Made by a program: the position numbers and the translations under genes
Part shown: in pieces, positions 17,165 to 55,700 of the stretch
Position numbering within the stretch: the stretch's first letter is position 1
How the letters are laid out: the number at the start of each line of letters is the position of its first letter
Notes under the pieces: model-generated
Told to the model about the DNA's origin: nothing
Database searches by the model: none
What the model saw: the letters and a program-made list of their open reading frames with translations, nothing else
Assembly: GCA_008632985.1 (NCBI GenBank)
Contig: QPGO01000169.1
Coordinates: 62,001-126,000, forward strand
Length of the DNA stretch: 64,000 nucleotides
Reading direction: 5' to 3'
DNA from: Psammoneis japonica
Lineage: Eukaryota

Positions 17165-17189
17165 TTTTCATTTGAGATGTGGGCAGGAT

Positions 17190-24385: not shown

Positions 24386-26703
24386 TTAGGCCTTGAAGCA
24401 GCTCTTATCACAGTTGACAGGAGGTGCTGGAACGTCGTAAGGTGTGTCCATGGAACTCACAAACGGAAGTAGTTCTGCCGCTCCAATAGTTGTCATCTCG
24501 CAGCAGTGAGGCCATTGCACCGTGAGCTCCACTGGCGTCCCAGCGATACCAAGTCCAAAAATCAAACGATCTTCACTTCCACCCTGAATCGCGCAACAAA
24601 GTAGTACGTGAGAGGGCGATTCCAGTCACCGCGAAACAAAAAAGGAGAGAAAATTAATCTACAAACCTCTGAATCCGTTTCATGACTAAGGGAACTGAGG
24701 ACACGTAACTGAGTAGTTTCCTCGTTTTGATCGGCGCCCATGGAAGAGGCTTTGAGTCTCACAATAGCTCCGATAGAAGCTGCAGGACCTGCGTTCTTGT
24801 CCAATCTAACGGCAAGATATTTGTTTTTATTCCCGTTGTCGCCCAATGTGTTGCGCACGATTACCGTAGCTCCATACAAATAGCCAAGAATAATGTCAAG
24901 GAACCCATCGTTATCAAGATCGGCAACGGTGGGTGCAAACGATCGAACTCGGTTCTGTTTGTTCAAGCTACAAACAGCAAACAGTAATAGGTAGTCAAGA
25001 TCTTGGCATTGCTCGAGGGTCAAGTATTTCGTGCATTTGCTGCTCTTCCTCACATCTGCCTCGACCGTCGGGACACCATCACAAATACTCTCTGGGAAGA
25101 CATGCTTGCGGGAATTTAGGTCGCCATATTCCATTCTTTCTCCCTCCTCGTTCTTTAACGGCTCGAAGACCTTTTTGGATGTGAGCTCGTACATACCATG
25201 AGTTGCCGGTTTGTCACAGATACTACAATTAAGAAGGGGGGATATACGCAGTTAGAAAATGAGTTCATGACTTCTTCCGACAAGTTAATTTCAACAACAG
25301 GATAGCCACTTACACGAGCATGTCTATTTTCCCGTTCAGGTTGAAATCAGCGAAGCGAATTCCACTCGCGCCCTTGAATCCACAGAGAGGTTTCAGATCC
25401 AGCTTTGACGTTGGGTTTCCCATGTAGTTGAGACAGCTCATAAGCCTAACATCTTCCGTGAAACCCTTGCACTTCCTTTGACGTGACGATGACAAATAGA
25501 AATCAACCCGATTTCCCCAGAGAATTGCCTGAACGCGAAGAAGCGGCAGAACTTTGAGCATGAAAATCTGGCTTTCGTCGTATGCATAGATGGCAAGAAA
25601 CACTTACAACGTCTGGTATTCCGTCCAAATCAAAGTCTTCAGTGGCAATAGATTTTGCAAAATCAAACTTGCCAGCGCCTCTTGGCGGCCTCTTCGTGAG
25701 TGACGTACGGCGCAGACCATGTTTCGAATCAAACTCGTAGACACTGAGGGCAAGCTTAGGCTTGTTCTTACAGACGTAATTATTAGACGCCGCACTCGCC
25801 CTGTCAGTATTTTTGCAGTTGGAGGGAACTACAAACTCACGTGCATAGCCATCCCCATTGACATCAGTTAACACGCCCATCCCTGCGCAACAGCGTAAGT
25901 AAAGATAAGTTAGGTAAAACGGATCATCCAAATCTCACGAATCTGCGCATTCGAAAATACAACATAGTTGTTTGCTTACTTGCGAATTCGGCAAAATTAC
26001 GCCCTTTCAATTTTGGTGTCTTGAAGACCCTTCCGTTCGAGTTCAAGTAGAAGCGACCAGGGCTAATTTTACCGTCTGCTCGTTCGTCATTCAGGGTGAC
26101 AAAATCCAGAAATCCGTCTCCGTTTGCGTCAAACCAATAGTGATGGCGACCGCGTTCGTTTCCTTCCTCGTTGTTTCGGCCATTCACTTGTGCGGCAAAA
26201 GCAGCGTCTCTACCACCGACAAACCGCATCCCAAGGTCCGAGGTTTTGTCTTCCTGTCCCCAAAAGAGTGCGTTGTCTTTTCCGGTGGTGTTGGCAAGGC
26301 CCATCCCACCGCCAGTCACCAAGTAGAAGTCTTTGATACCATCTCCATCAATATCAATAAATGCAGAGGAATGAGAATCAAAACATTTGTCTGGTTTCTC
26401 GTCATTTCGCTCAATGAAACCTTTACCCGAATTGGGGGCGTAGTAGGTGCCGTCATCGTTGTTACGCAATAGTGCGTCCCAGTCGACCGTGCAACCGCCT
26501 TTTCGGGGACCTACGACCGTCATGCTCGGATCCGACCACCGTTTAGTGTCCCGGCTGAATCCAAAGTGATTGTGATGAAACAGGTCAGGCACTCCATCGC
26601 CATCGATGTCAGCAGCATACGGAGACCCGTGCCCGTACATGGGAAGGTGCATGGCGAGCCCCAACATGGCAGTCTCATTGTACCCTGGAAGTAGTTGGAA
26701 CAT
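24386..26703 (-). CDS. FG-GAP / ASPIC-UnbV protein, copy 4 (inverted); exons 26703-25980, 25882-25608, 25528-25314, 25222-24667, 24583-24386
   Basis: MFQLLPGYN start, FG-GAP motifs and EDRLIFGLG...VQWPHCC end. Four phase-consistent GT-AG introns. Confidence 0.88.
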
Positions 26704-26754
26704 CCTTCTTAATTTTGTTGTTGTGAAGAAGCGATCCGTAGCACTACAATACCT

Positions 26755-26837
26755 AGGGGATGCTGTAGCAAAGTGCGGTGATCTGGAGCAACACAACACC
26801 TCTTTATGAAGGGGATGCCGTAGCAAAGTGCGATGAT
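26755..26837. repeat. 28-bp direct repeat (2 copies) upstream of the copy 4 start codon
   Basis: aggggatgctgtagcaaagtgcggtgat (26755) and aggggatgccgtagcaaagtgcgatgat (26810), with 2 mismatches. Confidence 0.8.
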
Positions 26838-27470
26838 TGTGTTTGCGTTCCAGAAGGATTGATTGGAACGAAATTTGTGGCATTCTTTTCTCAATACTTC
26901 GCTTCCTTGCCACTACGCTGACCGGTCAGAAACTATGTTAAATGAATCCTGTCACGCTCTGAAATTTATTTAAAAAAGTGGATGAGACCTGGAAAGGCGT
27001 ACGTATACAAAAAATACAATATTATTCCATGCTGTAGAAAAATAAAGTTTTGATGGATATATTGAGTTCATCAGAAGCACTGAGTGCGTCTCTAATAAAT
27101 GTTTATCAACGAAAGATCCAGTAATGATTTTGATGTGATTTGGACAGTCCAACAACAACGAGTTTGATAATTAGTAGGACAAACCAAAAAGCGAAGTTTT
27201 ATCGTACCGGGTTCTACGTACCCGTACGAGAACCCTAATTGAATCGAGCGAGTCAGGTTTACTCGAGCAGCACTGTGTTTTGTGTTTGGAGCACCGAAAT
27301 GGCCTCGATGGCACCAAAATGTCCAAATGGACATTTCACGACTGGGGCTTATCTTTGTAAAGACCAACTATGACCCCCTACAATACATACATCATACCTT
27401 TCATTTTTTCACCCACGAAACCGTACTAGCAGGACTGCAAACCAGCAATGTGTCATTACTTATCTGAATT

Positions 27471-27561
27471 GTAACCTTAGGCTTGTCCTGGCTTGTCCTT
27501 GTATCCCTGGTTAATCCTTGGTAACCTCAGGCTTGTCCTTGTATCCCTGGTTAATCCTCGG
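27471..27561. repeat. 10-bp-period minisatellite with a 40-bp higher-order duplication
   Basis: gtaaccttag gcttgtcctg gcttgtcctt gtatccctgg ttaatccttg gtaacctcag gcttgtcctt gtatccctgg ttaatcctcg. Confidence 0.85.
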
Positions 27562-27618
27562 GATTGAATCCTGCAGTTTCGGTCAGGTCTAGTTTCAGAT
27601 CATTCATTGTCGGTAACC

Positions 27619-29829
27619 ATGTTTGAGGTGTTCCCGGGCTATAACGCAACTCCAATGACGGAGCTCGCCATACAGTCACCCATGTATTCGCACGGCTCAG
27701 CCTACGCGCTAGACTGGAATGGCGACGGCGTCCTTGATCTGTGGCATCACAATCACTATATATTCAGCGAAGAGAAGTCTCGGTGGTCTGATCCCGCCAT
27801 GGCGAGAGAAGGACCGAGGAAATTTAAGTTTGGTTGCATGGTCGACTGGGACGGAGTACTTCGAGATGGAAAGAGTGGCACATACTATCAAGCGAAAAAC
27901 GGATTCATTGAATGGACAGACGAGAAGACTGGAGATAGATGCGTAAGTTGTTTGTTTTGGGTGTCGTGTTTCACGCAGGCAAGAGTTTCTCATTTTCCTT
28001 TGTGCCCAGTTTGACGTACACTCTACCAGCTATTTGGATATAGACAACGATGGTTACAAGGATCTCTTTCTCGTCACAGGTATGTCAGAAAAATTAGATT
28101 TTTTGCTTTGTTGAACTACGTTGCATGGACCGGTTTGTTTCTTATGAATTCTCGCGATGCCGTTGCAGGTGGCGGTAGGGGCGTCGGAGGGAGCTTTGAG
28201 TTTGATTGCATGCTTTTCTGGGGAGAAAAAGACAGAAAATCAGATGTAGGATTTCGACTTGTAGGAGGCAGAGATGCCGCAGAAGCTGCAGGTTTGAGTG
28301 GAAGAACACCAAAGGGAAACGAACGTGGACGCCACCAATATTGGATGGACGTAGACCAGGATGGTTTGATAGATCTCGTTACTCTCAATGCTGAAAGAAG
28401 CGATGGCATTGTAATACCTGGAAAGTTTTACCGAAACATTGATGGTCGAACTTTCAAAGTGGTGGGTGGAAGTGGGAAAACCTACGGTGAATTTTCCAGT
28501 AAGTTGAAAGCTTCGTCTTGTCGTATGTTTCACCTACATAGCCTAACAAAGCCCTTTGTTGCTTCAGAAATTGCGGTTCTCACCGATGTGAATGGTGATG
28601 GCTTTGCCCGTGAGCTTGTGGTTCCAAGCAGTTGTGAGTTGCGCAATAGACCTGGCAGATTCTCACCAAACTTTGTTTGTAATCGGGCGCCCCGAGGGAC
28701 AATCACCGTGTATCGAGGCGATTCCGATGGTGATCTTGTCCGTGTGAGTAAGTCTCCTAGCACTGTTAAAGACAGCATGCCCATTACACTTGCAACCGGT
28801 GATTACGATGGTGATGGAAAAGCAGATATTGCTATACTATGGTCCTTAAAAGTGGACTTTCATTTGTCGTCCATTAAGGATGAAAAGTGTAAACAGACAC
28901 CAAACGAAAAGAGACGGCAGGATTGTCTATTGAGAGTGGCAGAGCCTGATGAATCTCTGCATCTTGCCCCGAGACGGCTTCCTTCAGTGTGTGGGAGGCT
29001 AGGAGCAGCTGGAATGAGATTTGCGGATTTCAACAATGACGGCAGTATAGATATGCTCCTTGTGTGCAAAGAGCCAGGTCGTCATCGAATATACGAACTC
29101 GACGCAAGTCGAACTTGGAAGCCAATGACGGCATCCAATGGCACCGACCTAGATTTAGGCGCCTTGAGTAGCACTGATTCAATGCGTGGTGGAAAAGACT
29201 TTTGCAAGGGCGTTCCAATAGCTCCTGGGTTCACAATAGGAAAGGACAATTGCGAGGACCATTTCAATGGCCGTGAGTGCAATAATTTGCGTTATGACAA
29301 ACAATTCGCCATTTGTAACATTTGGAACAGAAACGAAAAAGGCACTCGGATACACGCCTTTGGTCCCACTGTGGCTGATATTGACAACGATGGCTATCCC
29401 GACATTATTCTAGGCCATCGCTTTGGCTCCATGATTATGGTACGAAACACTCTTGGAGACAAATCAAGGAACCGGTACATTGCTGTCAAGTTGGATCGTA
29501 AGGCAGGCGCTGCCGCGTCGATTGGTGCTATTGTGAAACTATGGGCGAATCGCATGGGACCCGGCGGACAAGGAACGACTAGTCAGATGCGGGTACTTTC
29601 TTCACTTGGCCATGAAAAAGACCCAGACGGCGGCGCGGAGGATCGCATGATTTTTGGCCTCGGTCCAAATGGAATTGCTAGAAAGGTCGAAGTACAATGG
29701 CCACATTGCTGCAACACCTCTGTAGTTGGTGGCAAGAAATTTTTGTGGAAGTTCATGAATCAAATGGATAGACCGCTTGAAGTACCGCTACCACAGGTCT
29801 GTGACAAGAGCTGCTTCAAAGTGGGATAG
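27619..29829 (+). CDS. FG-GAP / ASPIC-UnbV protein, copy 5; exons 27619-27942, 28010-28079, 28169-28498, 28568-29829
   Basis: MFEVFPGYN start and the same motifs. Three phase-consistent GT-AG introns. Confidence 0.88.
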
Positions 29830-30094
29830 CGAGTTCACCTCGTGTCTGACACAGCTTTTCCACACACAATCAAAAAGATCACTCTCTCAAGCGCTTTGAG
29901 GATCAATTTTAATATAAAATTCATTGCTCATTTTAGAGACAAAATGCCCAGGCCTATCTAGAGCACGTCTAGCGTCCAACTCCACCTTTTCCCCAGTGGC
30001 TAGAGCAGCTTCACTCCTCCAGAGTAGAGCAAGTCCAATTTTGGTCTGTTCGTTCGTTGTTTGCTCGGCCTAACGGTGTTGAGTGTCACTCAGG

Positions 30095-37963: not shown

Positions 37964-38234
37964 AAACTCACGTATGAAGCTGTTTCTATAGGTTTTGAAA
38001 CAGACCTGGCTGTCGTGAAAATAGAATGCCGACATCGCGTTTTGTCGCCGGGTAGTCGTGGTACTAATGAAGACTAGACTCTAGCGTTGTACTGTTGGAG
38101 GAAGGAGTGAGTAGATCTTTGGCAGTATTACCTGTAGCAAAAATATTAGAGAAGTCTGCCTGTGTTCCAACACTCTACACTACCGGTAGGCCCACTGACG
38201 GACTTCAGTCATTTAGCCGCCGCGCTCTACTGTA

Positions 38235-41200
38235 CATTTTGTTTCTGCTGCTGGATGAACTTCCAGTCTGTGACATGTTGGTCGTTAAATGTCGTGTCTC
38301 TGTTGAAGACCAGTTGTCCTGGTGTGGCTTGCACAGTGGTGTGATGCGCTGAGCGCACTGCAAATGCTGCTGCTGACAACGTTGCAGCAAAGGAATCCTC
38401 AGTGTCCAGAGGTGCATGTTGCATTCAAATGTGAGGATCATGTCACCCAGTGCTTGATGTGCATGTTCAATGATTGCATTTGCTTGTGGATTTTGTGCAT
38501 CTTGTGCAGCTGTGGGCTTGACTTTGGTGCCACAGTCCTCTTCAACCATGTGTTCAAACTGGTGTCCAATGAACTCACTTCCACGGTCACAAGCAATCAA
38601 CGATGGCCAAGGACATCTGCTCAACCATGTGCATTCCAATGATCCAGCAATGGCTGTGGATTCCTCATTTGGAATTTCTGCCATCTCAAACCATCCTGTT
38701 GCTGGATCAATCATTGTCAAACATTTTGGGACTGGGGGTTTCTTCTTCCTGCCCTTGCAACGCATTTTGCATGGTCCAATGAGATCCACACATGGTTGTT
38801 CCCATGGCAGAGTTTCCACGCATTTGGGAGGCAAATGTCCATGTTTCTTTTTGTTTCTTCTTGAAGTTTTGGCATGTCTCACACTTTGACACGAATTTTC
38901 GGATGTCTTCGTGCATGGTGGACCACCACAGGTGTGTTGTGAGATTGTTTCTTCAGCTCCACCCATGCCTGGGTGCAGAAGATGTGCATGGCACCAATCC
39001 ATCACCGCTTTTTGCATTGTCTTTGGAACAATGATTTTGTCCTTTTGACACACGAGCAACCGGTCTTGCTCACCTCCATGAAAAACCTTCATGTGAAATG
39101 TCTTGTTTGACAATTTGGAGAGAATGTCTTCACCCTGCTGTTGTTCAGCATCAAGAACTTTGCATGTTGATGGAAAGACAGTGTTGCAGGATTCAGGAGT
39201 GACCTTTTCAGCCAAATCTTCAGTGCTGAAGTTTTCCACAGGTGGCATTTCTCTTTCACAGTGAGTCGGCCAATTGCGTCTGCAACAACATTCGCCTTGC
39301 CCTTGAGGCAAACCATTTCCGGACTGCACTCTTCTGTTGTCAGTCGTCAATGCATGACTCTAGATTCTTGTGATCCGCGTGCACCCCAATCTGTTGGCCA
39401 AACAGGATGTTCCGGAATTCTTTGAGTGTCCCAACTGTGGACAAGAGTTCATTTTTTGTTGCAGTGTGGTGTGTCTGCACTGGATTTAACTTGCAACTGT
39501 GGAAGTGTGGAAGGCAACAGGTTGGTTGTTCTGAGTTGTGACCACCACCCCCAATTGAGCATTTCTTGCATCAGCGTGTGTCTCAAAGGGTTTGTTGAAA
39601 TTCAGGTGTGATGGTGCTGGCATGTCTTTTGACACAGTTCACTTCACATTTTTGAAGGCTTTTTGTTCTGTGCTCCTCCATTGCCATTTGACTTTAGATG
39701 AAGTGATTTTGGCTAAAGGAGCGAGTGCATGAGACCATCTGGCCACATGTCTTGACAACAGTTCATGATGCCAATGAACCGACACAATTCCTTGCAAGTG
39801 GCAGGAGTTGCGATGGAGTGAATCATCTCCACTTTCTTGGGCGGCATCGGTTGAGTGCCATTTTACATGACATGAAAGCCCAAGCAGTCAACTTCTGGCT
39901 GTGTGAAGAAGGATTTCTCAGCACTGACCTTGAGACCGGCTTGTTCAAGCTGTGTGAATGTTGTCTCAAGCTTCACAAGATGATCTTGGAAGCCACCTTT
40001 TGCAAGACATGGGACATCGTCAACACAAATCCTGACAAACTCTAGACCTGCCATCAGTTCACTCATGTGCTCCTGAAAAATGTCTGGAGCTCCACAAATT
40101 CCCACAGGCAATCTGCAGCACTCACATTTGCCCCACAGCATGACAATGGTGCACAAACGCCATGCAAACTGTGTCAATTTGACATGGCAGCATCCCATGT
40201 TCAAATTGAGCAAGGGCACATGCATGAAACCTTCCAGTTTCTGAAGCATGTCCTGAACATTCAGTGGAGGATGCGGAGTGCATGCTGGCCTCTCACTCAG
40301 TTCACGAAAGTTGGACAGAAACCAAACTCGACCATTTTTCTTGGGTTGAATGAAGGTTGGAGCTGCCCATTCAGAATGGTTTGTTTTTTTAGGACCTTTG
40401 GCTTGCAGAGCCTCTCAACCTCCTTGTGAGTGGTGGCCTCCAAGGCTTGTGGAACAGGAAACGGCTTCGCGTGATGTGGTTTTGCGCCAGATTTCACTGC
40501 AAGATCAACCGGTTTTCCGGTCCACTTGCCTGGAGAACCATCAAAAAGGGGCTCAAATCTTTTCAAAAGGAAGTTCAATTGCTTCTGCTCCTCTGAGTCA
40601 GATGAATTGCCACAGCTGTACATCGTTGAGATCAGCAGTGTGACAGTCACTGTCAAGGATTTTGTTGATCCTGTCATCATTGAGACTTTTCACGGCACAA
40701 GATTCTTCAATTTGATTGGCTGTCAGTGCAAACACTTGGCATCCTGAAGAGTGTCTGCATTCTTCACAGGTGTGGCAGCATCTTCCCATTTGATTTTTCT
40801 TCATTTGCAAAGTCTGGGACAATTCCAAGACTGAACATTGAGTCATGTCCCATGATCATGTCACAGCAACATGAAGAAGCAGTGCTGTCATCCACATGCA
40901 CTGTGGTTTCAATTTTCTCATGCTCATCAAATTTGGGTGAAGAGAACTGCGTTGAACAGCAGCTGTCAGTCGTGAAGAATCCACCCTCAGTTTCCCAAGA
41001 TTTGGTGGCAGATTTCTTCATTCTCAGTTTCCGCATGAATTTGCACAAAATCATGGTTGATGATGTTCTGCCATCAAGTGGAACACGCAAAGGCTTGTTT
41101 TTCTCTTTTCCCAGAGAAGCGTTCATGCAAGCGATGACCACTGGACCAGCGTGCATTGCTTTTGCCATTTTTCTGGGCTTCCTGATGTCCAGCAATGTGC

Positions 41201-42560
41201 AAGACTCCTCTGTGCGCGACAGTCACTCATCAGATTTGCTGTGAGTCAATTTTTTGAATTGACAATTCTCCTCACTGAGAGTGTCAGAGCCACACTCTTT
41301 GCTCTTGCACTTTGCACCCTTCTTGGACAAACTGCCTTGAGTGTTTTTTGAACCGCCTGAGTGATCATGGCATTCAATTCTTCCTCTCAGGAATGGCATT
41401 TTTTGCATTGCAACACAACCATGTGCAATTGCCATTCGTGCGACGCCTTTTGGGTCTTGCTGGAAATTCTCCTTGCATTCCCTTGCCAGTCTCTTGACTG
41501 TCCAGCACTTGTCCATGTTGTGAGTGGGCTTTTTGCAGTGAGTGTGCCACTCGTTGGACTCAGAACATTTGGCACCAGTTTGGTGACCAGTTTTGGAACC
41601 ACAATCGATTCCTTGTTTGGACTGCAAACCAGACTTGCTGCTGGTGTCCCCTTTGGCATGAGTGGCATCAAAGACATCTTCAGCAACCTCCAGGTGTTCC
41701 AAAAACTCAACCAACTCATCAAAGGCACGCATCAAAATTTCGAAACCTTGAGCGGTCAACTGACGGTGCCACCTGCAAGGTGCGAGATTGTGGAGGATGT
41801 CCTTGAGCTTGTCCTCCTTGATCTTCTGATTCTCATCAAATGGAGGACAACACTTGAGGTCTTTGTTGACTTCCTGGACCCAAGCAGCAATTTCTTGGAT
41901 CTTCGTGCTCTCTGGCTTCTTGAGATTGCAATGCAAATGATGTTTCTGAATCGAAAGTGCATTCTTCGGAAAGACATGACTTGCAAGGTGCTTCTGACAT
42001 TTTTTGAAGGCTCCTTCAGCTGACTCATTTTCAAGACTCGCAGCTGCATTCTTGAAAGCATGCAGAGCATCTCCCTGCAACAGCACATGCATGAGACGGA
42101 ACTCATTGGCTTGCTTCTTGACATTCTGGCCCACCAAGAGTTGTTCGTAGCTCTTGAGGAACTCAAGGTGCTTGGGAACACCCTGCTTCTTCTGGCACTC
42201 AATGTTGATGGTGTGGGTGCGACTGTCCTTCTTCTCCGGATGAACACACTGCTCCATCTTGAGGCACTGGCTTGGTTTGAGCATCTTTGGCTCAGAGATC
42301 AATTCCAATGGCACTGGAACAATTTTCTCCCGCTTGAGAGAAGACTTGGCATTGGCAGCATGAGGTGAAACCTTCATTTTCGACTTGTTGCCTTCTGCGG
42401 TGTGTGTGCCACAATGCACTGTGCTCAAAGAAGAACGAGCACAAATGAAAGCAGAACAAAGTGTGAAAAGTGAAAATTGTGAGGTTGGATTTTGCTCAAT
42501 CATTTTGGGTTTCTCCAAATGAGCTCTCAAAGGCCCAGAGCTTCTGTGCTGCTCCCACAC
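38235..42560 (-). mobile_element. Ty3/gypsy-type LTR retrotransposon internal region (gag-PR-RT-RH-IN), hypermutated and 3'-truncated; LTRs not identified
   Basis: Order on the minus strand: gag (41223-42560); protease-like LRVPLDG..., DMIMG (40764-41195); RT HAKPFPVP, RLPVGICGAPDIFQ, CVDD; RNase H remnant (~39400-39600); integrase HLLHPG, CVDLIGP, MIDPATGWFE, DRGSEF, NPQANAIIE. Confidence 0.92.
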
Positions 42561-44830
42561 ACAAAAGGCCTTTCAGACAACACAATCATGACAACAGATT
42601 GTCCGGATGTGATTGCTCTTGACACATGAGATGTCAACATTGTCAAGCAATTGTGTTTGCAATTTTCAACATCCAATCAACTCTGTGTGATTGATCTGTC
42701 CATTGTACAAACCCATGATTGACACGCGATTGAATGTAAAATGACATTTGAGCATGCACATGTGCATGTAAAATGTGCATGACAGTGCATGCTGCACACT
42801 GGCTGGTGTCTTTTTTGCATCTTTGTCTTTGTTGTTTCATTCACAGTGGTGCCCACCAGTTTCCCGTTGGATCAATGTGAAGCCCCCAAAGGGATTGTGC
42901 TCCCAGTCTTTCAGCTCTTCAGCTTTCTTCTTGTGGGAATTTGCCGCTGTCTCCAACTCAGGATCCAGCGGTGAGTTGCAGCTTGCACTCACCAGGTTGA
43001 CTGACAGCGAATTGCAACTTTTCATTGGTGGCATGACGTGTCCTCATCCTCTGGCATGATGTGTCCTCATCCTCACTGGGATGACACATGATGGGTTGTG
43101 ATGCTGGCAAAACTGGGTGAATCAAACATCTGAGAACATTCAAATTTGCAAGTTTTTTGCAGTGTGGGCACCAATCCATTGATTCTGTGAGGTTTGCCAC
43201 AAAAAGACATCAGTGCATCTGTGCTGCTGAACAGAACATCAATCAATTGGTTCTGCAGAATGTTGCACCATGGTGCAAGATGCAATGACTGCAGCACAGA
43301 AGCAGTGACAGCGGACCACAATGCCAAGCCCCTTCTGGGTGCAAAAATCCCAGATTTCTTAAATTGCAGAAATGACCACAACATTGATTGCAAATGATCA
43401 CCAGATCTGAGAAATGATCATCACAGTTTGTGGTTGCCATGCATGGTCAATCTGATTGCGCATGCCGCTGTCACAATCACAGCTGCACAGTCGTTCACAA
43501 TCATTGTGCTGGCTCTTTTTGAGAGCCAAATGTGAGAATTTGGAATGTGGAATCTTGCATCATGTGCAAGCACGTCACATTTTTCAGAGGCACAACACCA
43601 CCGCCCCTCTTTTTGGATGCCACACAGTCTCTGGCTGCTCCAGTGTCTCATTTCTACATTGCACCTCTCAAGAAAAGAGAAACAAGAGAGACAGAAAGAA
43701 GCAATTGCCACCCCTCATTTTGCCTCTCTTTGCCACAACTGCATCTTGGGACAAGGTGATGGTGGAGAAGAAACGTCTGCAGCATGATTGAAGGCACTGC
43801 CAGTTTTCCGCACATGTTTCCAGCATTGTCTTAGACACTGTCTTTGAGGTCACCATCAAGGTTCAAATTGATGCCAGAAATTCACCCAGATCATGCACTG
43901 CAGGTTCCATTTTTCTGCACCTCTGCCGGGGAGGCAGTGTTGTGACATGATCACATGTGATTGCAAAATCAGTGCCATTGCATCTTTTCACAATGGCACA
44001 CTTGCACTTTCTTCATGATGCAACATTTTGTTGTGAGCTGATTGTGACAGAAAATTCTGAAATTTAAGAACCCTGAAAAATCCTCCAGTTCCATGAAAAA
44101 ATCATGGGATGGGGGCAGCTCATTAAAAACCACCCAACTGTGTGCCATGTTGTGTTTGCTCCAGTGTGCATCATCCATGCACCATCTGCATTACACTTGC
44201 TCTGAGGTGTTGTGAAAATGTGTGGGGAAGTTCTTTTTCTCAATTCCACTGAGGAAAATTGGGGTTCCCTGCCAGGGGTCGCAAATGAGATGTTGGAACG
44301 GTGGTCAAGCAGCAACCCGCTCCCTCATGGGACCCCCAGCTGTGAATAACTCCCCCACCCACAGGTCTTCAAACGGAGCCATGAAGGCCGTCTGGAGACT
44401 GCTGGGGCAATTGAGCAAAGAAATTGCCCCGCAGCGTTCCCGCAGCAGGCCCGGCTTGAATGGTGGGAGAGAATTAAAACAGTCGCAGAGCAGTTTGTAA
44501 GAGTCCAGCGAGTGCTTTGATCAAATTGAGAGCTTGGCAAAGAGTTGCCCAGCTCATGGTCTGCCGGAAGATTGGTCTGCGGGAGAGGAACAACATGGAT
44601 GTTCCTTGGAGTGGCAGCTGTCAGATGTCCTCTGCCATTGAGCCTGTTAGAAAGTCATTTAAGCTTCCCATGCTGGATGAAACTAAAAACCTTGATTTTC
44701 TAGTGTTCATCATCTGATGGTGTGATGATTTCACACTTGTCTGGCAAGGGTGAAGGCGTCCGAAAGAGGAGACCATCTTCCTCCTCCCGGACCTGCCACT
44801 CCATTCCAAACTCATTTTCAGAATCAAAGA
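38250..44830. other. TpA/CpG-depleted hypermutated domain
   Basis: TA is nearly absent from the gypsy 3' end to ~44830, where TA-rich sequence resumes abruptly. Confidence 0.85.
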
Positions 44831-44905
44831 CAGTTACACCATCATGAAGATATGTTGTAATCTTGTGAACAGTGCGTCTATTATGATATTATGTAAATAG
44901 ACATC

Positions 44906-46737
44906 TCACGCATCATTGGCTAACTTTCTGACAGAGTAGTCCTTCCCTCCGTTGTACATGACAAGAACAAATCCAGCCACCCACTTTCGTGGATCGGTCT
45001 TGAATTTATGTTCCTCGACGTATTTCCTTAATTGAGCATGATACGCGTTCCATTCAGTGTCTGTAGGCCCCGTGGCGTTGTCCTTCTTTTTGAGCTCTAG
45101 TACTAGCGTGCATCTCTCCGTCGTAATTGTAACATCACTCCTTCCGGTGTCGAGCTTACCCTCCTGAGTCGTTACAACATCTGAGGGAATCATTTCGAAT
45201 TCTTCATGCAGGGATGCCACGATATTTCCTTGTAACTGAAGCTCCAGTATCCTGTTGCTTTGTCCGGACGCTGCCCAAGCAATCAACGCAGCCATCCGAC
45301 TCTCTGAAAGGGCATGCAAGAACTCGAGGAGGATGTGTTCCCCTTTTTTGTACACGTCTTTCTTCGTTTTCAGCTCAAGAATATCAGCAATAGAGCTCGC
45401 AAGTGCAAGGTTTAAAGCATCCAAGTGCTTCTTCCTGTAGAATTCGCTCGTTGATTTGAATTCTGTTTCATTGTTTTGGTGACTGTGGCCGATACAACTC
45501 CTAGATGAAAAGAAAGGTGAGGTACTGGTTCGCGTCCAGCTTCCCTTTCTCCAAAAAAGTTGTGATTGACATATCTTGGCTGATTGAAAATCCAGTCAAC
45601 TTTTTACCGTCGACAAGCTGGCTGACTAGGGCACGGATCTGACTTGTTTTAGACTTCTTGATAAGATCGAACGCGCTATGGGGTATCTCTCGGCTTTCGT
45701 GATAGTGGAGAGGTTTGCAAGCCACACATTCCGGTCTGAAGTCTCTTGAAGTTCAGCCATAGCTTGGTTCATCATGCCAGTATGGTAGAGCGGACTTCCA
45801 TGTGGGAATCCCAGGTTGTTGAAGTTCATTTTCAGAGCATCAAGCACTCGACGTTGCTCGGCGTCATCAAAAGATTCACCCGGGATTGCTGCTTGCAGCA
45901 TATTAGTTACGTCGCTTTGACGCAATCCAACAGCATCCGCCATGTCTGTCTTAAACGATAAATCGACATATCTGAAACCAGAGATAAGAGTGAGGCCGAC
46001 GGGGGTTATTCCAGCGACCCACGCGTTGACCGTCACTTCGTTGTCGCTTGAACTCTTGCAATTGTCGAAGAGGTTGACGTATTGAGCGTAACAAGCCTTC
46101 ATTCTTCCCCTGACATTGGGAATTTGCGTACCAATGAAATCAATCAAGACGTCGCGGATTGGTTTGTCGTACTCGTCGATGAGTAGGAGGAGAGTGGGCT
46201 GGGACTTGGGCTTGTCATCGCCACATGCATTATTCTCATGCACGCGTGCAATCAACTTGAGAGTTCGCTGATCATTTCTCCTGCATCCATTTCGTTCATT
46301 GAACGCACCAAACTCGTCTCAAATTGTTCTTTTATCGTCGCGTGCTTTGACAGGAACCTCGAGACGCAACGCTGGACGGCGTTGCGAGTTTTTTTATCGA
46401 TTTCTTGCGCCTTCTCTTCCCACCCTGCGTCGGCGTCGCCGGTAAATCCAACACCTCCAAAGTTAATGGAAATAACATACCAGGAATTCTTAATCTGGTG
46501 GATACGATTCTAGCCCGTAGGAGCTGTGTGTTTGTCGCTGAGGAGGAGCTCTGCTAGTGACCACAGCGTGGTCTTGCCCAATTGGGGCGGGCGGGTAAAG
46601 AGCATGTTTCTGTATTTCTTGGCACACTCCGTAACAAAGTTACTGTTGTCTCTGAAAATCGTGCGGTCGACGTCGTACACGGCCTTTCCCAAATCTTGAT
46701 ACTGGGGAAATTTGCGCTTCTTTGGCAGCAGAGACAT
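44906..46737 (-). pseudogene. AAA-ATPase-like + PD-(D/E)XK nuclease gene, split by several 1-bp frameshifts (pseudogene or assembly indels)
   Basis: TRPPQLGKT (Walker A-like), LLIDEYDKP (Walker B), GITP, and C-terminal GRSDV...VLELKK. The pieces lie in different frames without intron-sized gaps. Confidence 0.8.
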
Positions 46738-49700
46738 GATGTCTTTATTTATTCAATATCTGTTGTCGTCCTCGCTTTTGCGACTTCGCTGTTGCGCTAT
46801 TTTGTTGGCTACACCTCCACATTATCGTTTAGGCTTGGCGCAGAACCCGCAGGGCGCCAGTCCCTTTTTTATTTTTTTTTATAAGGAAATTATGCATTCG
46901 ACCAAGAAATTACTTTTTTCATACGGAAAACTAGGTCTCCAAGAACGATTCTGTTGAGTTTGTCATGTGGATGATCTCTTCCAACTTTGAAAATTCAACT
47001 TCTTTAAACTGTGAAGGATGTGCAAAATGGGCAAACAACATGTCCCTGTGCTCCCTCAGCATTCCGTGTTGAACCGGACTCTCTGCATCTTCTTGTGGAC
47101 TTTGTGGTGCAATTTTTGTTCTGGGCAAAAAAGGAGGATGGGGTTTGCCATCTTGCAATTCAGGTTGCAAGCACAATGGAGGATTCACGTGGAACTTGTC
47201 TTGCTCAAGAGGGATGTCTTGCTTGTTCATGAGAGCAATTGCAAGATGGATCTAAAGGCATGCCTCATTCTTGACTTTTTTGATTTGCTTTTTGACACCT
47301 GCTTCCAAGTGAAAGCACTCCATGACCTCCCCCCCATCATTTGACAGTTGCAGGTTGGACGAGCTGTGGTTGTTTGCAAACCACAACTTAGATTCTTCCC
47401 CAACCACACTCTTGTCCCACCCACAGCACTTCTGCAGTTTAGGATGTGATGTGGTGGCAAGCTCAACCATGTCATGAAAAAACCTTGTCAATGTGAAAGT
47501 TTCTGTTTTGTCGTCATCGTCATTGCAGTCTGAGTGCGAGAGCTGAGACATGTTGCCCTCAGTGCTCTGCATGACAAAAGAGAACAGGTGGCAGGCATGA
47601 GCATGCAGACAATGTGTTTCAAGTGTGGAGAGATCTTGGTTTGCACTCACCAATCCATTTGGCTTGAAACATGAAAGATTGCACTCCATGCCACAAATCG
47701 AAGTTGTCTTTGAGGTCACCTGAGCAGAGACATTCAGGTTTTTCTGAGCAGGCTCCAAGAAAGATGTCAGAAGCTTCAGTGGCATCTCTGGTGCTTTTAG
47801 AACTTCCAACAGACTAGAGTCCACAGTCAAGCCAGATGCATTGGAACCCTCAGCTGCAATGGCCTCCACTGCCACAGCAACAATGTCGATTTTGCAACGA
47901 GGCAGTCCATCCAGCTCCTCATGACACTCTTTGGCTGCCATTTGGATTTTCTCAAACCACTTTTCATGTGAATCAACAACCTCTGCCTTCATCATCACTT
48001 GGTTGGAATTGGTCTTTCTCTTGGTGCATCTCATGAGCATGAAAGCACCGCCAGGAAGCTCGTTGCAAGCAGAGCAACCATTGGCTTCAATGTGCACAGT
48101 GATGAAAGGCACCATTTCCTTGGCAAATGAAGCAGTTGTGTCAAACAGATGACTCGGCTTCAAAGTTTCAAACTTGAATTTGGAGAGTTTTGGCTTTGGT
48201 TCTTTGGATGGTCCTTTTTTGCTTGGAACAAACATGGTTTTGTCAAAGTGAATGATGAGTTTTGCAGGTTGTGGCCCCTTGGTTTCTTGCGGGCTTTCTG
48301 AGTCCTCTTCAGAATCAGACAAGTCCAAATTGGTGGCACCGCCTTTGCACTTTGACCAGATGCATGACCATTGTGTTCTGGTTGGTTGGTTGCAGGCCGC
48401 TTGGCAGCAGAGCAGTGGTGCCTTGCCATGGTTGACAGCGGCATGTTTTGGTCCCCCATTGTAAATTCCAGCACTTGTTTTGTGTGCAATTCCATGAGGC
48501 TTTTGAGGGGAACCTGGAAAGGTGTTGTCAAGAAAAAAAAAAGAGAAACCTCTCTCTCTTGAACCCTGTGACATTTCCGCTGCAAACAACAACAGCACAC
48601 TCTGTGACTGTGCACAGACATTTTTGCAAATTGTTGCCAAAATCGTGCATGTGTGTGCATGGCATGCCATGCACAACTCAATTTTTTGGTGCCTTTTGGT
48701 CATCCTGTCAATCAACCACTTTGAAGCATCTGGAAAGAGCTCATTGTGTCAAACATGTCAGATGCCTTTGATGCTCTTGTTGACCCACTTGAAGCAGTTG
48801 ATGTGGTGCACATGCAATGAGATTCAGCAATTCATGCAGAAATCATGCAGAAAAATGCTTGTGCAACACAAAAGCTGCACACTGGCTGGCCTCACCAACA
48901 AGTGACAGACTGCACTTCCAAGGTCACTGGAACAAGAAAGCTGCCATGTCAAAGGCTGTCCATTGAACATGCCAACAAGCATTGAGTCACTGTCAATGAA
49001 TGCCATGCATGTCATGTTGAATCAAGGTGCTTGAAACTTGACACCAAAATTGACCAACTTCTGTGGCATTGAACAGCTGTGCAAGTGCTGCAGCGGAAGC
49101 TGTCCTTTTCAGCCTGTTGTTGCTGTCAAGTGCACTGAAAGGTTTGGCATGTCTGCAGAAATGTGATGTCTTGGGGAATTTTCATGACACCTCTGAAACA
49201 TTGTGCACAGCATGCTGTGCACACAGTGTGAGGAGTGGGGACAAGCATGAGGTCAACCAGGCAGAGCTCCATGTCAGAATCACATGCATGCATCCGGGTG
49301 ACATTCTCAGGATCACCCCAAGACTCCACATGTGACTCAATTGAGATGGACACAATGCAACAACCACGCAGCTCCCTTGCCACACTGTCAAGCACCGCAG
49401 TTTGCACATGTCTGCACCTCCCAGAAGTTGGGAGGAACCTGGGTTCTTGGAGGGACAGGCAGGTTGGGCAGTCTGCTGGACTGCCCACCATCACATTCTC
49501 TCACCCACCTGGCTTTTCCCAGCTGGTCTGACACTGACATGGGAGCTTGTGCAGTGGGCGCAACCTCTCTCAACACATGCACTTGATTGTTCAACTGCTG
49601 CCGCCACCATGCCATTGTTGTTGCTGTCATTGATTTGCACATCGACATTTTTGTTGCTCCTCCAGCCAAACAAATTTTGATGATCCTCTTCTGCATCCTT

Positions 49701-51516
49701 GTTCTTTTCCTTTCCCCGTGCACCAAACAATCGTTTCATTTTCCGGGCTCCGGATTTGGCTGGCATCTTCCAATTTCACAAAGGGCAAAAAACATTTGGT
49801 CATGGCCCATTTACATTTTTCCTTCTTGGCAGCATCTTGGGTGGCTTGGACTTGGGAAGGCAACAACAAGTTGGTGGCTTTTAAAATGCCGTGCCATTGA
49901 AAACAATTGAGGCCCAATTTTTTAAATGACCATCACTCTTCACTTGGCCACTCTGCTTCTCAGTCTTCGACCAATGCATTGGCTTGTTGTTGACATTTCC
50001 AATCTAATTGTGTGGGAGGTCTGCACCTGATGCTCAAATCATTGCCCAATGTTTGATTGTGCAAACAGATTTGTGCATGTTGAGAGGCACAATTTTTGGG
50101 TTTTTCCTCCTTTTGTTGCTTGTCATCATTGCCTTTGTTGTCACTGTCATCATCATTCCCTGCCGCCAATTCTCACATGGCTTTGCCACCTGACATGGCA
50201 AGAAAGACCGCTTTGGCTGATGCGCACTTGTCAATCAGAAGCAATGAACAGATTTTTGACAAACATTCTGTGCCGCACACAACACACACCCACTTCTCCC
50301 GCCATGATCTTGTCTGCTTCAGCAATGACCTTGACTGTCATGAAAGCATCCCTTGCAGGCAGCACCAAGAATGCATGTGGCAATCAATGCTGTGGCTCCC
50401 CCAGTGGCATGCACAATGGCCAATCTGGCAAAGTCAATCACTGCAGTCAAAAATGCACTCAACATGCCATTGGAGCTCCAAATGGCATGTGCAACCACTG
50501 GACAAACAAAGCCCATCAAGACGGCACTGTGACACAAATGCACAGCCATTTGACATCGTTCAGCCATTGTCATGGGGTGTTTTGGAAGTGGGCAATGGCA
50601 TTGTGCTGGTGGTGCAAAAAATGCATGTAGATCTGCACACACTGTGGCCATCATTTGGAGGAATCTGGGCGGTGAGAGGGTGTGTTGGTGCAAGGCTTGC
50701 AAATCAACCTTTGACTGGATGGGAGCATGGGAGGAATGGAAATGTTGCGAGTGTGACCGACATTGCGTGGTTTGTGGCTGCAGCCATCATGTGGATGAGT
50801 TTGGTGATGGAGAGTGTTGGTGTGATGCCTGCTCTTCCAGCTTTGATTGGGTTGAGGCTGGAAAGCAATGCAGGAACAAACTGCACAGGAGAAAGCACGA
50901 TTCCCTCTTTTCAGGAAAATGAAATCAAGCAATGCTGCTTCCATGATGCAATGTTTCTCAAAGTCATTTCTGGACATGGAGCATGCACTCAGTTCATCTG
51001 CAACGACATTGGCTAGAATTTGCATTGCTCATTTCCTGCCATGCCAAGCATGATCCATGACCCCTCATGATTTTTCTCCATTTTTGAAAAGCCACTCATT
51101 TGTGATTTAGTCTTTTTGCCTCCTTTCCATTTGGGCAGCAACATGCTTGGCAGCATGACAGGCCTGGGTCACGGCGCTAAATGAAGGAATGCCTGCTGTC
51201 ATGTGAAAGCCATGTGTGATGGAACAAGCCACATTTCCAGCAGCATGCATGCCAGGAACAGTGCCACCATTGCTTTGGCAAAACACTTGACTTGTGGCCG
51301 CATCAGTTGCTGGGCTGCTGCATGAATCAAGTGCAGACGGGCGCAAGACAAGTGCGCGCAAGTTGGAGGTGTCCAGCGCTCTCATGAGAGGACAGCTGGT
51401 TGGTTCAAAGTCATGGTGATGGTTGTGTCTGCCAAAGTCTTCTTGGTCAATGCCAGCAGCAGCATGCAAGGTGAACGCACTCAGTGTGCTCTGAAGCGTC
51501 ATTGCAAAATTGGAAT

Positions 51517-52740
51517 TCACCAAGTCCTGCTCATTGAGCTTTTGCAAAAGGTCGTTGATCCTTGAACATGTCCTCCACTTTTGAGATTGGGGAGAAAGAC
51601 ATTTGCTGCCTTGTCCAGTGACACAGATGCTTGCATTTGAAGATGACCATTGCGGCCATCCACAATGACCAAGAGATGCCCTTGTTGAAGGCAAACGTCA
51701 CCATGGCAAGCATGTGGCCATTTTTCATTGTAGACTTGGTTTCCGTCACTGTTCACGACAATCATTGAGTCGCCATTGAGGAACAAGACAGCTTGTGTGC
51801 AACCATCAGGAAGATCAATGGCTTCAGCAAACCAAGAGGGGAATGCTCTCTGTTGATTGGAAGGACAAGGAAGAAGCTTCAGGTCTTGTGCAACCTCCTC
51901 CATGACACCAGCATTGATGTCATTCCAATGGCAAGACTTCAGCAACTCAAGTCCTTGATCGTGCAAGATCTTCTTGTTGGTCATGAATCCCCCTGAGGCA
52001 AAAATGACATTGTTGGTTCTTGGTGCAAAGTCATTTTCCTTGGTGGCACCTTTTGCCAGCCACATCAAGTCATTGGTGTCCATGTTTCTCATTGCATCTG
52101 TTGCTTGGTGATCCAGAAACACGTCGACATTCTTGTGCTTGAGTGTGCTCAAAGCAAGCCAACGAGGCAGACTCAGAAAGATGAGCAATCCATCCTTTTC
52201 TCCCACTGGGGTGCATTTTACAGTGTTTTGACTGGCAGCTGATCTGTCAAGTTGAAGAAATGCAGCAACGAGAGCTGCGAACTTTAACTCTCAAAGACTG
52301 CGCTTTGGTCGATGACAGCAAAGCATTTTTCTGTTGCTGCAGCATGCCATTTCCTGGCCCCATTGATGTCCATCTGATGTGTTGATGGTTTCAAGCCTTT
52401 CAATGTGTCTGTGCTGTTGCTGTGGATTGGGTCAATCTCATCATTTGACAATGGTGGAATGCTGTTGATGCTGTTGGCCATGAGCTGAACATTGAGTTCC
52501 TTGACATCCTCTCGGCTCCGGGGAAACCAGACGTCACCTGTGTTGGTTCGCCCTCTCAGAACTCCTCCTGGCTTGCTGTTCTTTTCCAGTGGCACCAAAC
52601 AGATGCTGTGCCCTTTGAGAAAGAGAAATGCTGCACACCCTGTTGCTCCACCACCAACAATGACAACGGGAGCCTTCTTGTCCTTTGCAGACACAGGAGA
52701 GTCACAAAACAACAATGCGCGAAAAGCCATCTTTGATGAT
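51517..52740 (-). pseudogene. Decayed FAD/NAD(P)-binding oxidoreductase-like gene
   Basis: VVIVGGGATGCAAFLFLKG...LEKNSKPGG matches the GxGxxG...E..GG flavin-binding fingerprint. The downstream frame is broken. Confidence 0.55.
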
Positions 52741-55700
52741 GGAGAATCATGCATGTCTTCCTTTTGTTTGGTGGGTTGAGAACCTGCAAAAGCAAGAATC
52801 ATCATCATCCAAGACATTGGCAGGAGAACATCCACTCGAATGCACAAGAACGATGACCTCATCATGACAGTTCTCAGGGGTTGTGTCACATGTGTTTTTG
52901 CCAGTTGGTTTTGAGGTGCATCATTGGTGGAACATGTGCTTCCAGTTGTGTGCACATGTCAGGGGCGAGGAACAAGAAGAGAGGAGAGAGAATGCAAACA
53001 GGGAGAACAGGGAAGAAGGTGAGCAAAACAGAGGCAAGAACAGGGAGTTGAAGTGAAAGAGGAACAAAAGAATCAAAGGGGGAAGAACAAGTGAAAGGAG
53101 GCAGCAATTCTGTCTTCGCACATCTTTGCACTGCAGAAGCCATGGAAAAATGGGCACATGTCCGGTCACGCACCGCAGGCAGCTGGCTCCGAGTTTGTGA
53201 AAAAAAGAAAGAGGAAAAGGAGGATGGAGGAGAGGAGAAAACGCCATGCGTTCAATTCGCACGTGCGACGGCCAGACCTTTTCACGATTCTCACAGAGAC
53301 CAGACGGAAACAACAAACTGGCCATGATGCGGCAACAACTGATGTTTGATCTTGCCACCAAACCTTTTCCTGTCAGAAATGTCAATGCATGACATCCACA
53401 TTTTGCTGTGACAAGTGTGTCAATGGCAAGAGACACTGGAGAAAACCCAAAAAATGGACAACAAAAGCTCCTTCCTGCAGCTGTGCTGCTGCCCAGACTC
53501 TCTAGATTTTCACAACTTGCACAGCTAAAACTGCTGATGAGCAGCATGCTGTGCTGTTTCTCTTTGGCAAGAGTGTGCCAGTGAAAAGAGAGGCAGGAGA
53601 AAACCCAAGCAAGAAGTGGGGCAAACACAAGGGCCCTTTGCATGGCTTTGCTGCAAGACTCACTCAGGCTCTCAGCTCTCACAGCTTGTGCACTTCAATT
53701 TAAGTTTGCACTTGACAGATTGAAGGCTGACTCTCAGCAATCAGGTGTCAGGTTCTGATGTCACACTGTGCCTGTGAGCAGGAGCACCAAGGCTGCTTGA
53801 CAGCTCCCAGCAGCCAGCTCTTTGTAAAAAGAAAAGACTGCAAAAGGAAAGGATTCACCTGCTGCAACACAAGAGACAAGCAATCAAGAGTGCATTTTCC
53901 TGTGGTTTGGTGTCAAACAAAATGTGCTTGTTCTTGGCACTGTGCTGGCAAGACCAGCTGCGGGGCACAGCCCCACACCCCGCCAGCCACAGCCACTGTG
54001 GGGGCTGGCCTCCTCTCATGATGCTGGCATTGGGCCAGATCATGCAGCTGCACCACTGCAGTCAAATGGCATTTCTGCCAGCTCTGCTTGAAAAAATGAT
54101 TGCAAAAGGAAAGGAGCCATCTGCAGTGCAAGAGACAAAAACCTCAGCAGCTGCACTCTGGGCTAGCCAACCAACAGAGATGAAAGGACCACATGTTGGG
54201 CTGCAAGATAAAAGGGCTGTGTTGGCCACAACTGGCACCAATCAAGTGCAGGATGTTTTCCTTTCATCTGAGGAAATTTGGGGCCACAAGAAAAGCCCCT
54301 GCAACCCAAAACCCCGCTTTTGCTCACACATCTTGATTTCCCCCTCATTGGCTTGTTGAATGAAGGAAACAAGAAAAAGCTTTCCTCTTTTGCATGAAAA
54401 TTGAACAACGGTTCTGCGTGCATGTCGGCTCCGTGCATTCTTGCACATTCTTTGAATGCATGGTCATCCCCACAATTTGTGTTCCACTTTTGGGGCCAAA
54501 AGAGGAGAGGTTGCTCACAGTTGGGCCGTGCATCGACGAAGTTGCAATCTGTTCAATCAACGTGGTTTCGTGACAACTCATGGGTGCAATGTTGAAAATC
54601 CTGTGTCGTTGCCATTGCCGATGAACAGGTGGACGTTAAAAGCTCTTGACAGCTTTCAAATGAACAATCAAGTGATGAATCATCATTGCATTCTGTGCTG
54701 CTGTTGGCCTCTGCTTTTTGGCACAAGAAATTTGAACAACATGAAAAGAGAGTTCACACGTTGCATTTCTCAACAAGCCCTCAACTAAAGACAAGGACAC
54801 CCCCCCCAAGAAGGTGGCACACAGCTGTGCCAGAGCTTGTCAGGGTTGTGTTTGGTCTTGTTTGAACTCAGCAGGAGTTGCATTCTTTGAACATGGAACC
54901 AAGCGTCGTCATCCACCAAAAAGCAATGGGACGCATTCAGAAACTCCTCTCGCATTGTGAGAAGCAGACACAAAAATCGCATTTGTGTGCACCGATCTCG
55001 AGCATTAAAAAAGCCTTGCATCATTTCCCAGCAGTGGTCCCATGCTAGAGTTGTGTGAGCAACAATGCTTTCCTGGCATGCCACGCATCCCCAACTCGGA
55101 ATTCTCCTGGTCCCCCATGACAATGTTGTTGCAAAACCGCAAAAGAAACCCAGACATGGTCCAAATTTGACATGCAGCATTTGGCCCACCTGCATTAATT
55201 TCAACAACCCAAGAATCTGCAAAGGATGCAGCACAATTTGCCAAGCCTTTTGCAAGAGATTTGTCACTTGTCGCTGTGAGACGACAGACATGTGGGAACA
55301 ATTGTTGAAGAAGAACAGCCTGAATGAGCAAAACACAGATTGAAGGGCAAATGTGCTGCCACATTGTTGTGATCGTGATGAAAGAACAGTGAAACAAAGT
55401 GCTCTACTTGCAGTTTGCAGATTGTGTGGAAAAAGCAAATGAGAGAAAAAAGAAAAAAGTGAGGCAATGCGACCATTTCTGCTTTTGTCTTCTGTGCAGT
55501 GCGATGAGTCTCTTGATGCTCACACCTGGGTGGTTTCGCATGACATGACAATCTTGCAGGCCCCACAAGTTCCTACGTACGCAGAACAAGTGCAAAAAAT
55601 CATGCACCTCAATGTCTTGGTGGAAAGTGGTGATGTCTTTGACATTTTCTCACTTTTTTCCCCAAATTGAAAATGGCACACAGAGAATTGCCTCCCACAT

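Follow-up and report, generated by a model that had tools for sequence, protein, structure and literature searches.

What process can rewrite the reverse transcriptase (RT) of a retrotransposon so that no tyrosine is left in it? The question is raised by a 64,000-nucleotide stretch of the genome of the diatom Psammoneis japonica (contig QPGO01000169.1, positions 62,001 to 126,000; the window in what follows, with its own numbering), in which a dead Ty3/gypsy element reads, on the minus strand of positions 40007-40030, ATT TGT GTT GAC GAT GTC CCA TGT, that is, ICVDDVPC. The motif lies inside a match to the Pfam family RVT_1 and aligns with VYLDDIL of Ty3 RT, the best solved relative, and the position of its first Cys is occupied by Tyr in 118 of 120 outside homologues, which is far from chance. 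A first-pass annotation of the window had derived the motif from IYIDDILC by four changes at TpA and nothing else, and had pointed to similar changes in five other motifs; ICVDDVPC reads exactly as claimed there, and the five others are also found. The answer proposed here, to which we assign a probability of roughly 0.6, is that a host process turns TpA into TpG or CpA in chromosomal transposon copies and in the dead DNA surrounding them, and that ICVDDVPC is one of its scars.

The gypsy family of this element is represented by at least 40 related copies in the 91-Mb genome assembly, and its members are 5.2-kb elements with 379-nt long terminal repeats (LTRs) and 4-nt target duplications. When young copies are aligned to the TA-richest copy of the family, which served as the reference, the 273 TA sites read TA 2961 times, TG 2473 times, CA 2337 times and CG 28 times (31 alignment rows from 30 places; L003 duplicates L051, yet is counted here and in the direction-agreement figures below). 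That is, 62% of TA sites in young copies have become TG or CA, or 31% per A at TA; A-to-G changes following A, C and G amount to 0.95%, 1.03% and 0.48%, so that the TpA change rate is some 30-60 times that of other A-to-G changes. CpG transitions stand at 3.6%, transversions at 0.11% and C-to-T changes before A at 0.17%, with non-CpG C-to-T changes and transversions at most 0.65%. Individual young copies have lost from 22% to 87% of their TA sites. The direction of change is from TA to TG or CA, because TA encodes the conserved residues and is a single step away from both other states. The two outcomes are equally frequent in the sense of the element, which indicates that both strands are hit about equally.

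Changes of this type would disable proteins by missense only, replacing Tyr with Cys or His, Ile with Val, Thr or Met, and Leu with Pro. Single TpA changes in the pol frame of the reference have 219 missense, 125 silent and no stop outcomes. Simulated CpA-type changes, similar to those of repeat-induced point mutation (RIP), give stops in 34 of 426 cases. Since TpA changes produce missense and no stops, and also erase TAA and TAG, frames of 1,000-2,200 codons persist in gypsy and copia copies that are heavily mutated; 13 of the 14 stops found in 29 young rows are CGA-to-TGA changes. In every copy, the beginning of gag (reference 500-1250) is poor in TA, with 1-6 sites per 250 nt as compared to 13-28 elsewhere, and the active lineage may have already shed TA there.

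The timing of the changes can be read from the LTRs. A comparison of 18 LTR pairs found transition differences in 400 of 1,305 columns with a TA site, in 31 of 845 with a CpG and in 23 of the remaining 4,539. The two LTRs of a pair show no excess concordance at TA sites (0.658 vs 0.698). Where two copies are both mutated at a site, the share of changes in the same direction is 0.608, against 0.614 expected from site bias (465 pairs), and agreement above 0.9 occurs only in the duplicate row and in one duplicated pair. Because LTR pairs differ independently and directions agree no more often than by chance, the mutator acts on inserted chromosomal DNA, and on each copy separately. Three near-identical pairs, L054/L057, L067/L068 and L093/L094, have their members at two places, and represent either duplications or separately assembled haplotypes; L003 and L057 were left out of the tract and CpG analyses and of everything later.

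The process also has a flanking preference, TAY over TAR (Y, pyrimidine; R, purine). The strand-folded hazard of a TA site in young copies is 0.84 when the 3' base is C or T, 0.46 for G and 0.36 for A. In the TpA-depleted segments of the window, 67 of the 113 surviving TAs are YTAR and 6 are RTAY, compared to 276 and 394, respectively, of the 1,399 TAs in its normal DNA; the skew of the survivors to YTAR separately confirms the preference for a 3' pyrimidine.

The same spectrum is found in a second family. A scan seeded with three Tyr-poor sequences among the 120 outside homologues returned 80 metagenome loci, most of which belong to one gypsy family, about 66% identical to the diatom family, with some records labelled as microbial mat. 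Of 56 copies, 19 were dropped (transversions above 2%, short cover, and 3 near-duplicates). In the 37 copies kept, 161 TA sites read TA 2468 times, TG 934, CA 846 and CG 11; a 3' pyrimidine goes with a hazard of 0.44-0.46 and a 3' purine with one of 0.15-0.18, and the 16 contexts rank alike in this family and in the diatom genome (Spearman 0.73, p 0.001). Thirds of like age differ in TA loss from 15% (low) to 77% (high), while having similar CpG loss (13.9% vs 12.9%) and transversions (1.2% vs 1.5%), and across copies the loss of TA correlates neither with that of CpG (rho -0.18) nor with transversions (rho 0.02). Since the thirds share their CpG loss and are similar in transversions, the process is neither a clock nor a by-product of CpG decay. 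It is also not seen in every host, because farther gypsy relatives from other metagenomes (L171, L173, L174, L179-L189 and L193-L196), with observed/expected (o/e) ratios of TA at 0.58-0.80, keep Tyr where the motif can be read.

Within a copy, sites that are mutated and sites that are not form clusters at distances of 2-500 nt, much more so than under a null model that preserves row and column sums. Many copies (for example, L036, L043, L042 and L035) contain all-or-none untouched tracts of 0.6-1.1 kb with common borders: 10 of 28 copies are untouched over about 2,850-3,900 of the reference and 8 of 25 over about 4,100-4,700, and 1,400-2,600 is partly mutated in 29 of 29. CpG transitions are also lower in untouched tracts (7 of 580 vs 47 of 718, and 6 of 338 vs 34 of 773). 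The tracts are nearly identical between copies, with 0-14 differences per 600 nt, and they retain differing lineage-diagnostic variants, while sister copies differ in tract state; for these two reasons, homogenisation by one donor, or polishing of the assembly, is unlikely. The tracts would be units of targeting. Origin of the tracts from an internal-deletion derivative, suggested by L066, was rejected, as the gap there is only the end of the retrieved locus. Spreading from TA-free flanks was also rejected: L075 has TA-rich LTRs amid TA-free flanks, L078 has a TA-richer flank next to a mutated LTR, and, in general, the state of the flank does not predict the state of the element.

Most young gypsy copies, as judged by the flanks of L073-L092, lie within older TA-free DNA. 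In the assembly, 72% of the TA sites are gone from the 5' coding half of the copy at L075:1770-6950 (G000:C57), and one contig from a read run, at a depth of 61, joins the flanks of this copy without the element. Among the contigs of that run, the family's element is split up into about 1,000 short pieces. This empty site hints that the insertion is young, and is not used as support here, as the run is possibly the assembly's own source.

The window element (38233-42738) is a more complicated case. Its membership in the Ty3/gypsy group is indicated by the RT, which is nearest to that of Ty3, and by the order of RT, RNase H and integrase. Family copies are flanked by two LTRs and a target-site duplication; of these, the window copy retains only part of a 5' LTR (42415-42738), no 3' LTR was found in the window, and the 3' end is cut off inside the integrase. 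It contains 13 TA in 4,511 nt, as compared to 265 in the 5,115-nt locus of the reference, to which it is 76.6% identical, with 6.6% transversions skewed to third codon positions (25/20/70 at the three positions). On account of this identity and skew, the window copy is best regarded as an older sister lineage with much added decay. A closer family, more than 78% identical, was not found (40 copies scored of 144 and of 386 candidates found).

All 28 Tyr codons of the reference pol frame are gone in the window copy, having been replaced by 17 Cys, 9 His, 1 Ala and 1 Phe codons, and thus the proposal that the mutator strips Tyr is borne out. A stop-free stretch of the RT (39863-40414, 182 amino acids) has no Tyr and 11 Cys, compared to means of 8.1 and 2.8 in homologues, and the gag-like frame (41223-42572) has 1 Tyr in 449 amino acids. 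The integrase remains (38233-39359) include the motifs IACDRGSEF (38571-38597), WLSRCPWP (38604-38627) and LIGPCK (38766-38783), at which little-mutated copies and outside homologues have Tyr, again as proposed.

The motif itself requires a more detailed account. In 40 other family copies (L003, L060, L062 and the window copy were left out of this tally), the core residues are CVDD in 12, YIDD in 8, HIDD in 5, YVDD in 4, HVDD in 3, CIDD in 3, and five singletons, which are the outcomes expected of two neighbouring TA sites each changing to TG or CA; therefore the changes of Tyr to Cys and of Ile to Val were TpA changes. The residue after the motif Tyr is Ile or Leu in 120 of 120 outside homologues, and YVDD is present in natural RTs. 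Downstream, the G that follows the second Asp codon is a TpA outcome, with GTG TTG in 12 copies and ATA TTG in one, and the third base of that codon in the window differs from the family by a transversion. For the Pro codon, where 118 of 120 outside homologues have Leu, the evidence for a TpA change is indirect: CTG is found in 4 of 40 copies, all of them older. The first codon of the motif is ACT in 40 of 40 family copies and encodes Ile in none of the 120 homologues, so the ATT of the window is most likely a fifth change, outside both TpA and CpG. Thus, of the claim of four TpA events and nothing else, the two core changes stand and the exclusivity does not; the inferred starting sequence was close, but not exact, and ICVDDVPC is itself a modest example of the mutator. 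A separate CVDD lineage devoid of Tyr is not apparent in the DNA, where carriers of CVDD share no excess of derived states.

Nor is the catalytic motif destroyed, as had been thought, since both of its Asp codons are intact in the window copy and in 36 of 40 copies. The aspartate that has been lost belongs to motif A (40184-40213, LLNLNMGCCH), where 40205-40207 reads Asn directly after C, a CpG-type change; it aligns with the LDL of Ty3 RT, whose Asp we take to be the first of the three catalytic aspartates. In the RT of HIV-1, three aspartates are essential for catalysis (PMC2850067). The same segment contains a CpG-type change of Ser to Leu and two TpA-type changes of Tyr to Cys. The element as a whole was not inactivated purely at TpA either: among 298 codons conserved in at least 90% of outside homologues, 73 are changed in the window copy, 29 of them by TpA-type, 18 by CpG-type and 26 by other changes, and control rules for CpA and TpG account for 2 and 0, respectively. 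Part of the 26 must be lineage differences, because the reference itself differs at 9 positions of this class. The reference has CGT, CGC and TGG at the places of three in-frame stops, none of which is TpA-derived; the four frame changes are likewise not TpA events. In the four most affected young copies, changes of TpA type make up 25-33 of the 38-50 changed conserved codons.

The element is a part of a larger pattern, in which 33,122 of 64,000 nt, or about half of the window, fall into four sharply bounded TpA-depleted segments. Three of these have TA o/e of 0.03-0.05 and CG o/e of 0.18-0.32, and one has TA o/e of 0.19, compared to TA o/e of 0.57-0.65 where the genes lie. The segment 38287-44647 (TA o/e 0.05, CG o/e 0.30) includes the gypsy element along with other old repeats; 13632-21515 includes dead copies of a local FG-GAP gene family (TA o/e 0.03); 46933-64000 contains ammonium-transporter and copia remnants (TA o/e 0.05, CG o/e 0.18); and 1-1809 is partly depleted (TA o/e 0.19). 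Host-type sequence is also hit inside these old domains, since TpA is erased both from an ammonium-transporter remnant (50319-50786) without a close counterpart in the assembly and from a dead FG-GAP paralogue (15816-17151). Tandem FG-GAP/ASPIC-like genes, 60-77% alike, at 7200-12600 and 21800-29830 have normal TA content. One host gene nearby belongs to Atlas clusters in which Bacillariophyta is the most frequent phylum, and this result, together with the gene content, points to a diatom host. A 2.3-kb island of normal composition (44648-46932), with a weak, sub-cut-off match to AAA-ATPases, separates two erased domains. The half-erased segment 1-1809 contains Cys-rich frames, one of which is a MYND finger, and some of the Cys in these frames may be former Tyr.

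In the copia remnant, the RNase H motif AEAECMAL (61619-61642) and the RT motif IKCKA (62685-62699) are both present. At the position of the Cys in AEAECMAL, 18 other copies (L206-L223) have Cys in 12 and His in 5, with no match in 1, Cys and His being what changes at TpA would make of a Tyr codon, in agreement with the annotation; the search was biased toward Cys, which the query carried, and no copy with Tyr was retrieved. An intact copia relative with Tyr was likewise not retrieved in the copia searches. The same 18 copies have 2-20 TA and 38-66 CG per kb and open frames of up to 2,279 codons, and are likely to be annotated as intact. As they are poor in TA and normal in CG, the loss of TA precedes the loss of CpG. 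The process operates after insertion, on both strands, independently in each copy and ahead of CpG loss, and it proceeds to saturation.

The chemistry of the process is a more difficult matter. The candidate that we find most attractive, at somewhat less than even odds, is a deaminase of the TadA/ADAT type that would turn DNA adenine into hypoxanthine, a base copied as G. The process would be switched on in marked stretches, each a unit of 0.6-1 kb or more; after a change on one strand, the opposite A would no longer follow T and would thus be safe; and in old copies, such as the one in the window, CpG decay, other substitutions and frameshifts would be added on top. Base editors derived from TadA work best on an A with T on its 5' side and C on its 3' side, and less well with a 3' A (PMC8989541), and in this, as well as in the A-to-G change, they and ADAT2/3 resemble the diatom process. 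These are, however, engineered or tRNA enzymes, with no established natural genome-wide role of such kind in the sources cited here.

Several observations weigh against this proposal. The 5' T preference of TadA editors averages only 25-52% and rises up to about fourfold at the edges of the editing window (PMC8989541), which is far looser than in the diatom family. Nine matches to PF00383 in the genome look, by sequence reading, like housekeeping deaminases, namely dCMP deaminase, TadA, guanine-deaminase-like, ADAT2-like and RibD proteins; the ADAT2-like one (L098) is a candidate from a universal protein family. Two genes of the ADAR/ADAT1 family, L198 (C40:111174-114892) and L202 (C79:342500-347500), are also candidates, with no tie to the process; the one on C79 could be a second, non-tRNA enzyme. 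Sequence does not separate a lesion on A from a lesion on its partner T, and strand coordination, the likely trace of a processive deaminase acting on single strands, is absent beyond TATA. The losses of TA and CpG in this genome are coupled both across copies (rho 0.66) and across tracts. The term 'repeat-induced' is not established, because single-copy host-gene remnants are also erased, and a defensive function is hypothetical. A deaminase domain, in L097 (C79:87006-90176), shares a frame with a domain read as a 2-oxoglutarate/Fe oxygenase.

A mutagenic base mark seems a less likely explanation than a deaminase, though it is the strongest of the alternatives. In such a scheme, TpA in silenced DNA would be the target of a writer enzyme that modifies either its A or its T (the latter, for instance, to an oxidised thymine), and the modified base would miscode or decay in the way 5-methylcytosine does at CpG; oxidised thymines are able to pair with G. 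The palindromic target, the equality of strands, the lack of strand coordination and the all-or-none tracts, in which CpG loss is also lower (7/580 vs 47/718), all agree with a mark. However, passive decay would be expected to be slower than a loss of 22-87% of sites at about 0.1% transversions implies, the preference for flanking bases is similar to that of TadA (PMC8989541), and no report of a TpA-specific mark was met, although the literature was not searched under that name.

Error-prone repair synthesis is improbable. A polymerase similar to polymerase eta, recruited to methylated repeats by T:G mismatches, would put G opposite T, and polymerase eta indeed causes A-to-G changes at WA motifs (PMC2213188). 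The coupling of TA and CpG loss across the copies of this genome (rho 0.66) also agrees with repair; TA loss correlates with transversions as well (rho 0.46), and its coupling to CpG loss is partly through age. On the other hand, WA includes AA, at which 0.95% of sites are changed, against 31% per A at TA. In any one copy, TA sites with a mutated CpG within 10-100 nt are lost no more often than others (z 0.2-0.9); there may be a weak trend with the distance to the nearest CpG, 0.82 being lost within 4 nt and 0.63 beyond 20 nt. Repair patches should leave same-strand runs, and none are seen beyond adjacent TATA, all larger distances being within noise; at TATA (distance 2), change on the same strand has a frequency of 0.666 vs 0.515 expected. 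Finally, TA loss is uncoupled from CpG loss in the metagenome family.

An artefact of assembly or polishing, or slow neutral decay with GC-biased conversion, is very improbable. The near-identity of untouched tracts (0-14 differences in 600 nt), and the fact that the pattern is seen in assembled contigs rather than raw reads, could suggest an artefact. Yet the same spectrum and context are found in separate metagenome assemblies of another family, and the tracts keep their lineage-diagnostic variants while sister copies differ in state; non-CpG C-to-T changes and transversions also remain low (at most 0.65%). ADAR-like editing that precedes integration, of either the transcript or the cDNA of the element, for which one could invoke the two ADAR/ADAT1-family genes and the 5' U preference of ADAR (10.64898/2026.01.13.699255), hardly deserves credence, since TG and CA outcomes are equal in the sense of the element, host-gene remnants are hit, and the independent mutation of the two LTRs of one element contradicts it.

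The closest known precedent for the TpA-directed host process is the hypermutation of the rhizarian Bigelowiella natans, described in a 2026 preprint (10.64898/2026.01.13.699255), in which TpA-only transitions were measured in integrated DNA of NCLDV (the nucleocytoplasmic large DNA viruses) and of virophages, at a per-generation rate about 1000 times the background. An adenosine deaminase was proposed there, and not demonstrated. Both processes turn TpA into TpG or CpA on both strands, near-exclusively so in the diatom; both are restricted to regions and include single-copy DNA. In the diatom, mobile DNA is hit and genes are spared (TA o/e of 0.03-0.05 vs 0.57-0.65), with dead host-gene copies hit too. 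Both are also uneven between lines or copies, as illustrated by the metagenome copies of like age that have lost 15% or 77% of their sites. The preprint deals with viral inserts and a directly measured rate, with a Rho TpA of 0.45 in the main region, whereas in the diatom the targets are LTR retrotransposons and dead host genes, saturation proceeds to TA o/e of 0.03-0.05, a 3' pyrimidine is preferred, and the tracts are all-or-none. RT domains are among the TpA-poor genes of B. natans (10.64898/2026.01.13.699255), and the main text of the preprint does not mention 'diatom' or 'retrotranspos'. No paper on a TpA process in diatoms was found in a literature search, which covered few subscription journals.

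Other systems share the logic of the process rather than its chemistry. RIP takes place at a premeiotic stage and needs RID or DIM-2. Like RIP of ascomycetes, the diatom process leaves dense, dinucleotide-specific transitions on both strands of transposon copies after their insertion and spares nearby genes. RIP changes C:G to T:A, mostly at CpA (PMC2621366), and therefore creates TpA, which the diatom process consumes; CpA changes would give stops, and TpA changes give none. With C-to-T before A at only 0.17%, the process is RIP-like in logic and fails the defining chemistry of RIP. As to duplication, the trigger of RIP, repeats are hit, a remnant without a close copy is hit too, and intact paralogues with 60-77% identity are spared. 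The APOBEC proteins of vertebrates are another case of host hypermutation that leaves dead retroelement copies; they, however, change C to U during reverse transcription, before integration (PMC4866542), and here A:T is changed to G:C after integration on both strands. The one-strand bias and shared LTR changes of editing before integration, as well as the AA changes of polymerase eta, are not observed. The element itself has the familiar Ty3/gypsy features, with gag, protease, RT, RNase H and integrase in order, TG...CA LTRs and short target-site duplications; unlike intact elements, the window copy is truncated and broken.

The process is thus real and strong, and is found in transposons of at least two organisms. 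It is conceivable, albeit rather doubtful, that diatoms have a natural DNA adenine base editor of the TadA/ADAT type, serving as a genome defence, which would be guided to kilobase segments of transposons, saturate TpA and kill by stop-free missense; it would be common to Rhizaria, hence old within the SAR group (stramenopiles, alveolates and Rhizaria), and would be operating in nature in at least two organisms. The process would be a transposon-directed mutator with a polarity opposite to that of RIP and APOBEC, found in a major algal group and strong enough to rewrite about half of the window, and it widens the range of a process known from a single preprint, adding retrotransposons and at least two other genomes. 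The TAY-over-TAR signature and the borders of tracts make both the enzyme and its guide testable. Because open frames of more than 1,000 codons are kept, annotation will take dead elements for intact genes; LTR dating and models of GC content will be biased unless TpA sites are set aside.

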